Below, piece by piece: positions 11,867-17,201 of a stretch of 64,000 bases of DNA (position 1 is the stretch's first letter; each line of letters begins with the position of its first letter). The notes below the pieces were generated by a model, which was given only the letters and a program-made list of their open reading frames with translations, searched no databases and had not been told where the DNA came from. A program made the translations under genes and the position numbers. The stretch is from Escherichia coli (GTDB lineage: Bacteria > Pseudomonadota > Gammaproteobacteria > Enterobacterales > Enterobacteriaceae): NCBI RefSeq assembly GCF_003018255.1, contig NZ_CP027440.1. One strand, given 5' to 3'.

Positions 11867-12529
11867 TTATATGACACTTAATTCATTCGTTTGATGAATT
11901 AATTTCGTTATGTTTTCATCTGGCATGAACATTCTTAATACGTTATCGACCAGAGCGGGGGCTTGTTTATAAAGATCATAACCCGCCATATTCATTAACC
12001 AGTTTTGAACAATTCCGCTGAAGGCACCATCAATAATAATCATCACAACATCTAAATCGAGATTATTTGCTATACAACCTTGTTGCTGACACGCCTGCAA
12101 TACTTCGCGGAGAGTCTGCGGATTAAAGCCCATCTTTTCGCGTATCACTCCCTCGGCCAGCATCTCATCATTAAATTCACATTTGTGATATAAGATTTTC
12201 AGCAACGCCTGCTGGCGGGGAATTTTGGCAATATATTGCAAACCGACAATCAATTTTTCACGCAATTGCTGAAACGGGTCATGCTCTAACCCAGCGGTCA
12301 AGTGATCCTGGATTAACTCCCGCAATGAAGGCTGTTGCAACCACATCTCATTAAACAGTTGAGTCTTGTTCTCGAAGTGCCAGTAGATAGCGCCACGCGT
12401 AACGTTAGCAGCGTCGGCAATGTCGTTGAGCGTCGTCTTGCTTACGCCATGCTGCGCAAACTGGGCGATGGCAGTTTCAATCAGTTCTTGCCGGGTCTTC
12501 AGGGCTTCAGCTTTGGTTCTTTTTGCCAT
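11867..12529 (-). CDS. envR: TetR-family repressor EnvR (AcrS) of acrEF
   Basis: 220-aa ORF with N-terminal TetR HTH; divergent from acrE. Confidence 0.95.
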   Translation of the reverse strand: MAKRTKAEALKTRQELIETAIAQFAQHGVSKTTLNDIADAANVTRGAIYWHFENKTQLFNEMWLQQPSLRELIQDHLTAGLEHDPFQQLREKLIVGLQYIAKIPRQQALLKILYHKCEFNDEMLAEGVIREKMGFNPQTLREVLQACQQQGCIANNLDLDVVMIIIDGAFSGIVQNWLMNMAGYDLYKQAPALVDNVLRMFMPDENITKLIHQTNELSVI

Positions 12530-12927
12530 GATTAATTATTCAGGAAATAAATATATTCGACACAGGATGAGAAAATAGAGAAGGTTAATCTATCACCTAA
12601 TGTGTATTTATACGAGAGGCTAATATTGCGTTGCTATAAATCGTCAAATAAATGATATGTATTATTTACATAAAATACATTCACTTGGCCTATACATATT
12701 TCAATTTACGAGATTTTAATTCTACCTCTTTCATTCCGCGTCAAAACAAAACAGTAGAATATTAATCTTTTTTTGTGTTTATGTGCCTTGAGTTGCCAGT
12801 ATTCATAACTATTCCTTACATCGACGAATGATAATTTGTAGGATAGCGAACTGTATTTTTCTTTCTGCGAGTTAACGCATTGCCTTTTTGGGCAAATAAC
12901 GCGCTTTTGGTTTTTTGAGGAATAGTA

Positions 12928-14085
12928 ATGACGAAACATGCCAGGTTTTTCCTCCTGCCCTCCTTTATTCTGATCTCCGCGGCTTTAATCGCCGGTTGTA
13001 ACGATAAGGGAGAAGAGAAAGCTCACGTCGGTGAACCGCAGGTTACCGTTCATATTGTGAAAACGGCCCCGTTAGAAGTTAAGACTGAATTACCAGGCCG
13101 CACCAATGCTTACCGTATAGCCGAAGTTCGCCCACAGGTTAGCGGGATCGTACTGAATCGCAATTTCACTGAAGGCAGCGATGTGCAAGCAGGCCAGTCC
13201 CTGTACCAGATCGATCCCGCGACCTATCAGGCAAGTTATGACAGCGCGAAAGGCGAACTGGCGAAAAGTGAAGCCGCCGCCGCCATCGCGCATTTGACGG
13301 TAAAACGTTACGTTCCGCTCGTGGGTACGAAATACATCAGTCAGCAGGAGTACGACCAGGCCATTGCTGATGCTCGCCAGGCCGATGCCGCCGTGATTGC
13401 CGCAAAAGCCACAGTCGAAAGCGCTCGCATCAATCTCGCTTATACCAAAGTGACTGCGCCAATTAGCGGACGTATCGGCAAATCGACTGTGACCGAAGGC
13501 GCTCTTGTCACTAATGGGCAAACGACCGAACTGGCGACTGTCCAGCAGCTCGATCCTATCTACGTTGATGTGACCCAATCCAGCAACGATTTTATGAGGC
13601 TGAAGCAATCCGTAGAGCAAGGAAATCTGCATAAGGAAAACGCCGCCAGCAACGTAGAGTTGGTCATGGAGAACGGTCAAACCTATCCCCTGAAAGGTAC
13701 GCTGCAATTCTCCGATGTTACCGTTGATGAAAGCACCGGCTCCATAACCCTACGTGCCGTCATCCCTAACCCGCAACATACGCTTTTGCCGGGTATGTTT
13801 GTGCGCGCACGGATTGATGAAGGCGTCCAACCTGACGCCATTCTTATCCCGCAACAAGGCGTTAGCCGCACACCACGTGGTGATGCAACCGTGCTGATTG
13901 TTAACAATAAAAGCCAGGTTGAAGCGCGCCCTGTCGTTGCCAGTCAGGCGATTGGCGATAAATGGTTGATTAGCGAAGGTCTGAAATCTGGCGATCAAGT
14001 CATTGTCAGCGGCCTGCAAAAAGCGCGTCCGGGAGAGCAGGTTAAAGCCACTACCGATACCCCCGCAGATACTGCATCGAAGTAA
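12928..14085 (+). CDS. acrE: RND efflux periplasmic adaptor (membrane fusion lipoprotein) AcrE
   Basis: 385-aa ORF; lipoprotein signal with lipobox LIAGC. Confidence 0.96.
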
Positions 14086-14096
14086 GGCAATCTGAC

Positions 14097-17000
14097 ATGG
14101 CAAACTTTTTTATTCGACGACCGACATTTGCATGGGTGCTGGCCATTATTCTGATGATGGCGGGCGCACTGGCGATCCTACAATTGCCCGTCGCCCAGTA
14201 TCCAACCATTGCGCCGCCTGCGGTTTCTGTTTCGGCAAACTATCCGGGTGCTGATGCGCAGACCGTGCAGGATACGGTGACGCAGGTTATCGAACAGAAT
14301 ATGAACGGTATCGATAACCTGATGTATATGTCCTCCACCAGCGATTCCGCCGGTAGCGTGACAATTACCCTTACTTTCCAGTCCGGGACCGATCCTGATA
14401 TCGCGCAAGTGCAGGTGCAGAACAAACTCCAGCTCGCCACGCCGTTGCTGCCGCAGGAGGTTCAGCAGCAGGGGATCAGTGTTGAAAAGTCCAGTAGCAG
14501 CTATTTGATGGTGGCGGGCTTTGTCTCTGATAACCCAGGCACCACACAGGACGATATCTCGGACTATGTGGCCTCTAACGTTAAAGATACGCTTAGCCGT
14601 CTGAATGGCGTCGGTGACGTACAGCTTTTCGGCGCACAGTATGCGATGCGTATCTGGTTGGACGCCGATCTGCTAAACAAATATAAACTGACGCCGGTTG
14701 ATGTGATTAACCAGTTGAAGGTACAGAACGATCAGATCGCTGCCGGACAGTTGGGCGGAACGCCAGCGTTACCAGGGCAACAGTTGAACGCCTCGATTAT
14801 TGCTCAGACGCGGTTAAAAAATCCGGAAGAATTCGGCAAAGTGACCCTGCGCGTAAACAGTGACGGCTCGGTGGTGCGTCTGAAAGATGTCGCACGGGTT
14901 GAACTTGGCGGTGAAAACTATAACGTTATCGCTCGCATCAACGGAAAACCGGCGGCGGGCCTGGGTATTAAGCTGGCAACCGGCGCAAATGCTCTCGATA
15001 CCGCGAAAGCCATTAAGGCAAAACTGGCGGAATTACAGCCATTCTTCCCGCAGGGAATGAAGGTTCTCTACCCTTATGACACCACGCCATTCGTCCAGCT
15101 TTCTATTCACGAAGTGGTAAAAACGCTGTTCGAAGCTATTATCCTGGTATTCCTGGTGATGTATCTGTTCTTGCAGAATATGCGAGCAACGCTGATCCCC
15201 ACCATTGCGGTACCCGTGGTGTTGTTAGGGACGTTTGCCATCCTCGCCGCTTTTGGTTACTCCATCAATACACTAACGATGTTCGGGATGGTGCTTGCCA
15301 TCGGGCTGCTCGTCGATGATGCGATAGTAGTGGTGGAGAACGTCGAGCGCGTGATGATGGAGGATAAGCTCCCGCCAAAAGAAGCGACGGAAAAATCAAT
15401 GTCGCAAATCCAGGGCGCACTGGTGGGTATCGCGATGGTGCTGTCAGCGGTATTTATTCCAATGGCATTCTTCGGCGGTTCTACTGGGGCAATTTACCGC
15501 CAGTTCTCTATCACCATCGTTTCGGCAATGGCGCTTTCTGTTCTGGTGGCATTGATTCTTACCCCAGCGTTATGTGCAACACTGCTCAAACCCGTCTCTG
15601 CTGAGCATCACGAAAATAAGGGCGGTTTCTTCGGCTGGTTTAATACCACCTTCGATCATAGCGTTAACCACTACACCAACAGCGTCGGCAAAATCCTCGG
15701 TTCCACAGGACGATATTTACTGATCTATGCACTAATTGTTGCTGGAATGGTGGTGTTGTTTTTACGTCTTCCGTCTTCCTTCTTACCTGAAGAGGATCAG
15801 GGTGTCTTTCTGACTATGATTCAGTTACCCGCTGGCGCGACGCAAGAGCGGACGCAAAAAGTGTTGGATCAAGTGACGGATTACTATCTGAAGAACGAAA
15901 AAGCGAACGTTGAAAGTGTCTTTACGGTTAACGGTTTTAGCTTCAGCGGCCAGGCACAAAACGCCGGTATGGCCTTCGTCAGTCTGAAACCGTGGGAAGA
16001 GCGTAATGGTGACGAAAACAGTGCGGAAGCGGTAATCCATCGTGCCAAAATGGAGTTGGGCAAGATCCGCGACGGTTTTGTCATTCCATTCAATATGCCA
16101 GCCATTGTTGAACTGGGCACGGCAACGGGTTTCGACTTTGAGTTAATTGATCAGGCTGGGCTGGGTCATGATGCCCTGACCCAGGCCCGTAACCAGTTGC
16201 TTGGCATGGCGGCGCAACATCCTGCCAGCTTAGTCAGCGTGCGTCCTAATGGTCTGGAAGACACCGCGCAGTTTAAACTGGAAGTTGACCAGGAAAAGGC
16301 GCAGGCATTAGGTGTTTCACTTTCTGACATCAATCAGACCATTTCAACAGCGTTGGGTGGGACTTACGTTAACGACTTCATTGACCGTGGTCGCGTAAAA
16401 AAGGTGTATGTTCAGGCGGATGCCAAATTTCGTATGCTGCCAGAAGATGTCGATAAACTTTATGTCCGTAGCGCCAATGGCGAAATGGTGCCATTCTCTG
16501 CCTTTACCACTGCACATTGGGTGTATGGTTCTCCGCGACTGGAGCGCTACAACGGTCTGCCGTCAATGGAGATTCAGGGGGAAGCCGCGCCAGGAACCAG
16601 TTCCGGCGATGCCATGGCGTTGATGGAAAACCTTGCATCACAATTACCAGCTGGTATTGGTTATGACTGGACGGGTATGTCATATCAGGAACGCTTATCG
16701 GGAAACCAGGCTCCCGCTCTGGTAGCAATTTCCTTTGTGGTTGTTTTCCTGTGCCTTGCTGCACTCTATGAAAGCTGGTCAATTCCTGTCTCGGTTATGT
16801 TGGTCGTGCCGTTAGGGATTGTCGGCGTGCTCCTGGCGGCGACACTCTTTAATCAAAAAAATGACGTCTACTTTATGGTGGGCTTGCTAACGACAATTGG
16901 CTTGTCGGCTAAAAACGCTATATTGATTGTTGAGTTCGCTAAAGATCTCATGGAGAAAGAGGGTAAAGGTGTTGTTGAAGCGACACTAATGGCAGTACGT

Positions 17001-17201
17001 ATGCGTCTGCGTCCTATCCTGATGACCTCTCTCGCCTTTATTCTCGGCGTATTACCGCTAGCTATCAGTAACGGTGCCGGCAGTGGCGCGCAGAACGCAG
17101 TGGGTATCGGGGTAATGGGCGGGATGGTTTCTGCAACGTTGCTGGCAATCTTCTTCGTGCCGGTGTTCTTTGTGGTGATCCGCCGTTGCTTTAAAGGATA
17201 A
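14097..17201 (+). CDS. acrF: RND multidrug efflux inner-membrane transporter AcrF
   Basis: 1034-aa ORF; 12-TM RND pump, AcrB paralogue. Confidence 0.97.

Follow-up and report, generated by a model that had tools for sequence, protein, structure and literature searches.

Architecture and natural variation of the AT-rich control region between acrS and acrE, a reserve efflux locus of Escherichia coli

How can an intact multidrug efflux operon stay nearly silent in Escherichia coli and still be recruited by mutation? The question is raised by the acrS(envR)-acrEF locus in a stretch of 64,000 nucleotides of the E. coli contig NZ_CP027440.1 (assembly GCF_003018255.1), hereafter the window. Here the gene of the TetR-family repressor AcrS (EnvR; 11867–12529, minus strand, 220 amino acids) is divergent from acrE, encoding a periplasmic adaptor lipoprotein (12928–14085, plus strand, 385 amino acids), and acrF, encoding a resistance-nodulation-division (RND) permease (14097–17201, plus strand, 3105 nt, 1034 amino acids). 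All three are intact open reading frames (ORFs), and the divergent intergenic region (IGR) between acrS and acrE spans 398 bp at a GC content of 0.312 (12530–12927). It is very probable that acrEF is an intact, near-silent reserve pump paralogous to AcrAB, repressed by H-NS through the AT-rich IGR and recruited by mutation. The locus is the chromosomal acrS(envR)-acrEF of E. coli; the window strain has it in intact, wild-type form, and the control region is already known; what is added here is descriptive, i.e., the architecture of the IGR, a catalogue of natural insertion sequence (IS) insertions and an apparently lineage-wide deletion.

Two sources describe acrEF as repressed by H-NS and activated by IS elements upstream of the operon, with very low expression in the laboratory and no phenotype upon deletion (PMC4462101, PMC9330008), and according to the former AcrEF is expressed more strongly once hns is inactivated (PMC4462101). 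Both envR and acrEF are reported to be H-NS silenced (PMC9780535, PMC6790063, PMC10202319), and further papers deal with how acrEF is repressed by H-NS, poorly expressed and activated by IS elements (PMC6599122, PMC7305214). For H-NS repression and IS activation, PMC4462101 and PMC9330008 cite Nishino & Yamaguchi 2004, Kobayashi 2001 and Jellen-Ritter & Kern 2001; Hirakawa 2008 is a further older study, cited here through secondary sources. The original prediction, made from the letters of the window, had taken the locus for an H-NS-silenced paralogue of acrAB that is activated by IS insertion or loss of H-NS, which is established literature (PMC4462101, PMC9330008, PMC9780535). It had also regarded the locus as a candidate site for regulatory mutations rather than novel content, which we judge to be right, the feature being already known and wild type here. 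The ORF calls agree to the base with the positions it gave for envR-acrEF and the 398-bp IGR, and its description of that IGR as long and very AT-rich withstood a check of AT content.

In this check the GC content of the window as a whole was 0.500. Just 0.17% of the 398-bp segments of the window are as poor in GC as the IGR, and the sole other place that is equally AT-rich is found at about 54.2–54.8 kb. It contains the divergent region between gspAB and gspC-O (54301–54479, 179 bp), which is the only other stretch of equally low GC in the window, also lies between divergent operons, and is known as another H-NS-silenced locus of K-12. In a rough model of the genes in the window, 47 gaps have a median length of 84 bp; the IGR is the ninth longest of them, and among those of at least 270 bp none has a lower GC content. 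Other gaps have GC contents of 0.39–0.53. A/T tracts of four or more nucleotides number 10 in the IGR against 3.8 expected, and the density of TpA steps in its distal part is 0.134 per bp compared to 0.047 per bp in the window.

Conservation divides the IGR into two parts. From a genome scan with AcrS, orthologous loci were collected from another 13 species of Escherichia, Citrobacter, Salmonella and Pseudocitrobacter, and 15 sequences were aligned. Across these four genera the IGR measures 376–413 bp and has a GC content of 0.30–0.34, with 0.51–0.57 in the adjoining acrE. The distal, acrS-proximal 238 bp (12530–12767, no strand assigned; GC 0.282) can barely be aligned across genera (identity 0.39, with 0.30 expected by chance), and their GC content is nevertheless held at 0.26–0.32 in 15 of 15 sequences. 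The proximal 160 bp next to acrE (12768–12927, plus strand; GC 0.36) have a between-genus identity of 0.70 and form a conserved regulatory core, with invariant blocks TTTTTTGTGTTTATGTGCC, ATAAsTATTnCTTACAT, ATwATTTGTAGGATA and GTTAAC, a hairpin at 12880–12895 and a Shine-Dalgarno sequence (GAGGA, 12917–12921, plus strand), which lies 6 nt 5' of the acrE ATG and at which rAGGAA is invariant across genera. The distal tract keeps its composition whereas the proximal core keeps its sequence.

The same division is seen within E. coli. The IGRs of the window and of K-12 are both 398 bp long and differ by 24 substitutions (94.0% identity) and no indels. Twenty of the substitutions fall in the distal 238 bp, which gives a divergence of 8.4%, the same as that at 4-fold degenerate sites of acrS, acrE and acrF (8.25%), whereas divergence in the proximal 160 bp is 2.5% (Fisher p=0.017 compared to the distal part). 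The differences are clustered, 11 of the 24 being located in 12645–12695, including a multi-base patch at 12686–12691. The allele of the window is in the minority: 75 genomes have an IGR at least 99% identical to it and 1,050 one that is 95–99% identical (1,125 at 95% or more), while 4,105 genomes, K-12 among them, are 90–95% identical. Intergenic regions to which H-NS binds show faster evolution in general (PMC4720273), and the distal sub-region is presumed to comprise an H-NS-bound silencer together with the promoter and 5' untranslated region (UTR) of acrS. A 77-amino-acid ORF with an ATG start on the minus strand (12706–12939) takes up most of the proximal IGR; the sequence there resembles non-coding DNA and is variable in part, and the ORF is probably spurious.

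The proximal core contains a candidate promoter for acrE on the plus strand. A putative -35 hexamer CTTACA (12815–12820, 4 of 6 consensus positions) lies in the invariant block ATAAsTATTnCTTACAT, and 18 nt past it a putative -10 hexamer TAGGAT (12839–12844, 4 of 6) lies in the invariant block ATwATTTGTAGGATA; GATAAT at 12830–12835 (plus strand) is an alternative candidate for the -10. Between K-12 and the window there is no difference in the segment 12805–12860. In evolution lines lacking acrB (delta-acrB), IS5 was found at -94 and -163, IS1 at -138 and IS2 at -86/-90, along with single-nucleotide polymorphisms (SNPs) G>A at -86 and T>G at -92 (PMC9783932). Position -86 was verified to be 12842, the second G of TAGGAT, which the G>A change converts to TAGAAT. 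The IS2 insertions duplicate GTAGG (PMC9783932), i.e., 12838–12842 as verified here, so that TAGGAT is left intact beside the IS end, and IS5 at -94 falls between the two candidate hexamers. Apart from T>G at -92, these published changes give independent support to the candidate promoter in the conserved core.

Insertions at the same places also occur outside these evolution lines. In 5,426 complete E. coli genomes, IS elements were searched for with a chimeric query that joined the IGR and 300 bp on either side, in both orientations, to tags of 225–300 bp from K-12 IS elements, so that IS-bearing genomes outrank intact ones. Representatives were fetched and mapped, and genomes termed inferred below were assigned from identical match geometry. 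Tags of IS1, IS5 and IS2 returned at least 38 records above the intact reference, and subsequent tags of IS3, IS30, IS150 and IS186 gave a single case in the region, an IS3, among the matches listed. IS1 or IS5 was located inside the IGR in at least 15 of the 5,426 genomes (0.28%) at no fewer than eight sites, and these counts are lower bounds that cover seven IS types; a split IGR is present in at least three further genomes. To look through resistant isolates for IS elements within 12530–12927 was a check named by the original prediction, and its outcome among these complete genomes is positive. In the distal IGR, IS1 is inserted at 12558–12565 in 2017.11.01CC (PSS-10 inferred), at about 12683–12691 in RM9088 and at 12702–12710 in NT1N31 (NT1N34 inferred), and IS5 at 12762–12765 (-163) in N1024 and strain 124 (N780 and N779 inferred). 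Closer to acrE, IS1 is found at 12791–12799, no more than 1 bp from the published -138 site, in AR436 (AR_0374 inferred), IS5 at 12831–12834 (-94) in the laboratory-evolved AML001_ev01 (AML001_ev02 inferred), and IS1 at 12865–12873 in XJ55. Strain 035152 carries IS1 at 12590 together with a deletion of acrEF through yhdW. Two of these natural or laboratory-evolved sites equal published activating insertions (-163 and -94) and one is within 1 bp of another (-138). The IGR is both a target of IS elements and a fast-evolving sequence, in line with the general patterns of IS capture and fast evolution in H-NS-silenced regions (PMC11335895, PMC4720273).

Most of the insertions share an orientation. 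At seven of the eight sites in the IGR, as well as in three IS1 and one IS5 insertions in the 5' region of acrE, the transposase gene is directed away from acrE, and the left inverted repeat (IRL) end of IS1 or the corresponding end of IS5 faces it. Outward or hybrid promoters may have been selected for, or the bias may result from target preference.

A mechanism can be proposed from these data. AcrEF would be a TolC-dependent RND pump held in reserve and recruited by mutation. H-NS would bind the AT-rich tract by virtue of its composition and not at a specific site, and H-NS on the distal tract would occlude a weak sigma-70 promoter, CTTACA-18-TAGGAT, about 77 nt 5' of the ATG. Three routes of activation are conceivable. 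An IS5 at -163 or an IS1 at about -137 would separate the core from the AT-rich tract, possibly with effects of the IS itself in addition; an IS5 at -94 or an IS2 at -86/-90 would put an IS end in place of the -35 side and create a hybrid promoter; and the G>A mutation at -86 would improve the -10 hexamer. The derepressed locus might further act as a switch, as it would make AcrS along with AcrEF, and AcrS would turn acrAB down.

Several results weigh against silencing by H-NS through the IGR or against the promoter placed in its core. The high-affinity H-NS motif TCGATAAATT (tCGATAAATT) has no match within two mismatches in the IGR, where 1.2 are expected from shuffled sequences. H-NS binding does not require this motif. 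AA/TT power at periods of 9.5–11.5 bp is not above that of shuffled sequences in a crude test (P 0.15–0.78), and the curvature that the original prediction had suggested as a check is thus unsupported by a simple test, phasing of A-tracts at 10–11 bp not being significant. The IGR sequence alone gives no proof of H-NS binding. A consensus promoter scan found no site in the IGR at the threshold of 9 of 12 positions, and CTTACA-18-TAGGAT reaches 8 of 12; the promoter assignment therefore relies on conservation and on the positions of published mutations and not on a mapped start site. The T>G change at -92 does not fit a promoter with TAGGAT as its -10. Finally, acrAB is intact in AML001_ev01, so that selection for activation of acrEF is unproven in that strain.

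Some of these observations agree better with acrEF being silent mainly through an intrinsically weak promoter, the AT-richness being incidental and IS elements and SNPs supplying better promoter elements without any need for H-NS. The low score of the best candidate and an IGR in which neither the H-NS motif nor significant phasing was found would both be expected, as would improvement of the -10 by G>A at -86 and replacement of the -35 side by IS2 or IS5 at -86 to -94. Yet IS5 at -163 and IS1 at about -137 spare the whole core and were nonetheless selected in the delta-acrB background and recur naturally, and inactivation of hns raises AcrEF, according to PMC4462101 and, for Salmonella, to work cited in PMC9780535. 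Moreover, the distal tract has kept its low GC content across four genera, below that of the other gaps of the window, while its sequence drifted neutrally, and this points to selection on composition. As a full explanation the weak promoter is rather doubtful; it is most likely a contributing factor rather than an alternative to silencing by H-NS.

A classical local repressor is a less probable cause of silence. The divergent arrangement of a TetR-family gene and a pump operon is that of acrR-acrAB, the NCBIfam family to which AcrS belongs is named acrEF/envCD operon transcriptional regulator, and acrEF is listed among the targets of EnvR (PMC6790063), all of which would suit an AcrS operator in the IGR that keeps acrEF off. 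No conserved palindromic operator of the acrR-acrAB type is present in the IGR: the best counterpart of the K-12 acrAB operator TACATACATTCACAAATGTATGTA has 10 mismatches in 24 positions (P 0.79 against shuffled sequences), and the sole 24-bp pseudo-palindrome, ATGTATTATTTACATAAAATACAT at 12657–12680, was rejected as an AcrS operator, having three K-12 substitutions inside it and no conservation across genera. In addition, PMC9780535 states that the acrAB promoter is bound more tightly by EnvR than by AcrR, that EnvR predominantly represses acrAB, not acrEF, and that envR is itself H-NS silenced. Control of acrEF by AcrS from such an operator is accordingly improbable. Still further from the evidence is the idea that the AT-rich IGR has no regulatory role and is left over from DNA that was mobile or came in by horizontal transfer. 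Foreign DNA typically has a low GC content, and that of acrS is 0.44, but locus, synteny and the length and composition of the IGR are conserved in Escherichia, Citrobacter, Salmonella and Pseudocitrobacter, the IGR showed neither repeats nor IS ends nor Rfam elements, 5,230 of the 5,426 E. coli genomes have it, and a short IGR of normal GC was not seen among the 13 related species with acrS-acrEF. A foreign origin of this kind is very hard to credit.

Repression of acrEF by H-NS through the AT-rich IGR, the preferred reading, can be compared to what is found at related loci. The envR-acrEF locus of K-12 MG1655 (b3264–b3266) has the same genes, order, orientation and neighbors as that of the window. 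The acrR-acrAB locus has the same plan of a divergent TetR-family regulator followed by adaptor and RND permease, but in K-12 the acrR-acrA IGR is 141 bp long with a GC content of 0.355 and holds a perfect 10+4+10 palindromic operator, which the 398-bp acrS-acrE IGR does not, and acrAB is constitutively expressed while acrEF is not (PMC4462101). The closest parallel in control is the cryptic bgl operon, which PMC9678765 describes as H-NS silenced via AT-rich promoter flanks and activated by IS elements from upstream; at acrEF, IS5 and IS1 likewise land upstream of an intact promoter core. The bgl operon uses two H-NS sites, one of them downstream, and a DNA loop, and unlike bgl acrEF is also activated by replacement of the -35 side and by point mutations in the -10. 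In Salmonella enterica the orthologous envR-acrEF has an IGR of 410 bp (GC 0.32–0.34) with the same conserved proximal core, although its distal tract cannot be aligned with that of E. coli and AcrS is just 68–70% identical; this locus is reported to be repressed by H-NS and activated by IS1 and IS10 (PMC9330008 for IS1 and IS10; PMC9780535).

Besides the insertions in the IGR, the survey revealed gene-disrupting insertions and loss of the control region altogether. The IGR was found in 5,230 genomes and is absent from 196, and a sensitive blastn search recovered the identical 5,230, by which a highly divergent IGR allele was rejected as the reason for the IGR-less genomes. An exact junction of yhdU (at 11750) with IS903B is present in 126 of the 5,426 genomes, e.g., L106 (NZ_CP043279.1). 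The corresponding deletion covers 11751–13118 and removes the 3' end of yhdU, acrS, the whole IGR and codons 1–64 of acrE. Compared to strain 32-4, which has a simple IS903B insertion in acrE at 13119–13131, it is an adjacent deletion mediated by IS903B. Fifteen of 30 listed strains with the junction (Sanji, WCHEC005237, ECONIH6, AR_0149–0162 and others) are named as sequence type (ST) 167, an NDM-5 high-risk clone, by PMC6392093 and PMC7193042, neither of which mentions a yhdU-acrE deletion. The deletion is apparently lineage-wide, in what appears to be a carbapenem-resistant lineage, and the assignment to ST167 covers these 15 of the 30 listed strains.

A different loss occurred in MS 69-1, where a phage-like island with Icd-like, primase, capsid, portal and terminase genes and no annotated integrase has replaced yhdJ through the 5' end of acrE. 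This island was considered as the cause in the approximately 159 genomes that have the flanks and lack the IGR, and was rejected, as its junction is unique to MS 69-1. In KFu015 (L104) a related phage-like island with an integrase, a KilAC antirepressor and an Icd-like gene is inserted between fis and yhdJ (corresponding to about 10632–10710 of the window).

Mapped insertions within the genes comprise IS1 in acrE at 12929–12937, 12950–12957 and 13120–13128, IS2 in acrE at 13534–13539, ISKpn26 in acrS at 12286–12289, and IS5 in acrE at 13139–13142 in 1218KP, which had been a candidate for IS5 at -163 until its sequence placed the element inside acrE. Four independent disruptions fall within 27 bp of acrE (13119–13145), namely the IS903B target site duplication at 13119–13131, IS1 at 13120–13128, IS5 at 13139–13142 and the MS 69-1 breakpoint at 13145; the local GC content is 0.54, i.e., not AT-rich, and a post hoc simulation of uniform placement gave P of about 0.001. 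Lesions of the operon are many and independent, and include the acrE of KFu015, annotated at 855 nt instead of 1,158 nt owing to an in-frame internal deletion, and an acrF insertion of 45 nt in ST11 (PMC10202319). The locus has been described as unusually variable in Escherichia, and the explanation given was drift of an operon that is seldom needed (PMC6790063).

In the window strain the genes themselves bear no such lesion. AcrS matches the NCBIfam equivalog NF007430 over its full length (1–219 of 220 residues; 434 bits, cutoff 274). AcrE and AcrF have the AcrA and AcrB models of NCBIfam as best matches and score below the equivalog cutoffs (611 against 765 bits and 1967 against 2150 bits, respectively), as expected of paralogues, while they pass the broader models TIGR01730 (286 bits, cutoff 94.9) and TIGR00915 (1862 bits, cutoff 940). 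A lipobox, LIAGC, is read by eye in the translated N-terminus of AcrE. The gap between acrE and acrF is 11 bp, and lipoprotein adaptor and permease with 12 transmembrane segments form one operon, which at the level of the genes is what a tripartite RND (HAE-1) efflux pump would be predicted to have; the TolC channel, encoded elsewhere on the chromosome, and the transport activity of AcrEF are known from the literature (PMC4462101). Amino acid differences to K-12 number three in AcrS, four in AcrE and six in AcrF, internal stops are not found, and the 45-nt stop-containing insertion of the ST11/O157:H7 type is absent from acrF of the window. Positions 11600–13200 are 100% identical to E. coli strain 104 (chicken, China), in which the RefSeq gene order is fis-yhdJ-yhdU-acrS-acrE-acrF-(yhdV)-(yhdW). 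This chromosomal context, fis-yhdJ-yhdU-acrS / acrE-acrF-yhdV-yhdW, is confirmed and was found at a coverage of at least 80% in 5,219 of the 5,426 genomes.

Just past the acrF stop an 11-bp GC-containing stem followed by UUAUUAUUU (17211–17236, plus strand) is a plausible intrinsic terminator of acrEF, with a predicted RNA fold of -15.6 kcal/mol (z -3.59; 0 of 200 shuffled sequences equally stable). Also 3' of acrF, AT-rich patches at 17200–17400 and 17700–17900 (GC 0.33–0.34) lie on either side of the small yhdV.

Upstream, in the presumed 5' UTR of acrE, the palindrome TTGCC-N6-GGCAA (12880–12895, plus strand) is conserved from Escherichia to Pseudocitrobacter. It has one covarying pair (AU in 7, GC in 5 and GU in 3 of the 15 sequences), 89.6% of its alignment cells are paired compared to 23–61% with the partner slid, and its score was reached by 2 of 500 shuffles, which lends modest support to a predicted hairpin of 5–6 bp; the palindrome could equally be protein-binding. 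The notion that the acrE 5' UTR is structured as a whole was rejected (z -0.10 against shuffled sequences; consensus fold just -2.4 kcal/mol). Rfam families gave a chance-level match in 11500–13200, located inside acrE (E 0.85), and a partial marbox-like GCAC on the minus strand at 12783–12786 has by eye 4 mismatches to the consensus.

A more specific picture may be drawn, which we put forward tentatively and with less than even confidence. The distal 238 bp would be a silencer by composition only, its sequence drifting freely while about 72% AT is selected in every genus for nucleation of H-NS, and uncoupling it from the core would suffice to switch acrEF on, as with IS5 at -163. N1024, N779, N780 and strain 124, as well as AR436 and AR_0374, would then be circulating constitutive expressers of AcrEF, and in ST167 the loss of the AcrEF back-up, as well as of AcrS as a brake on acrAB, would be irreversible.

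AcrEF is recruited when AcrAB is lost or inhibited, and its control is therefore relevant to strategies that rely on efflux inhibitors. The route known from the laboratory, an IS element at defined points of the IGR, also exists in natural genomes of clinical and environmental origin, at a frequency of at least about 0.3%, and at least 3.6% of the genomes, a greater proportion, are without the control region, including an apparently carbapenem-resistant lineage. A conserved core joined to a distal tract that is maintained by composition only would provide a concrete design with which to probe H-NS silencing at a promoter of the core genome.

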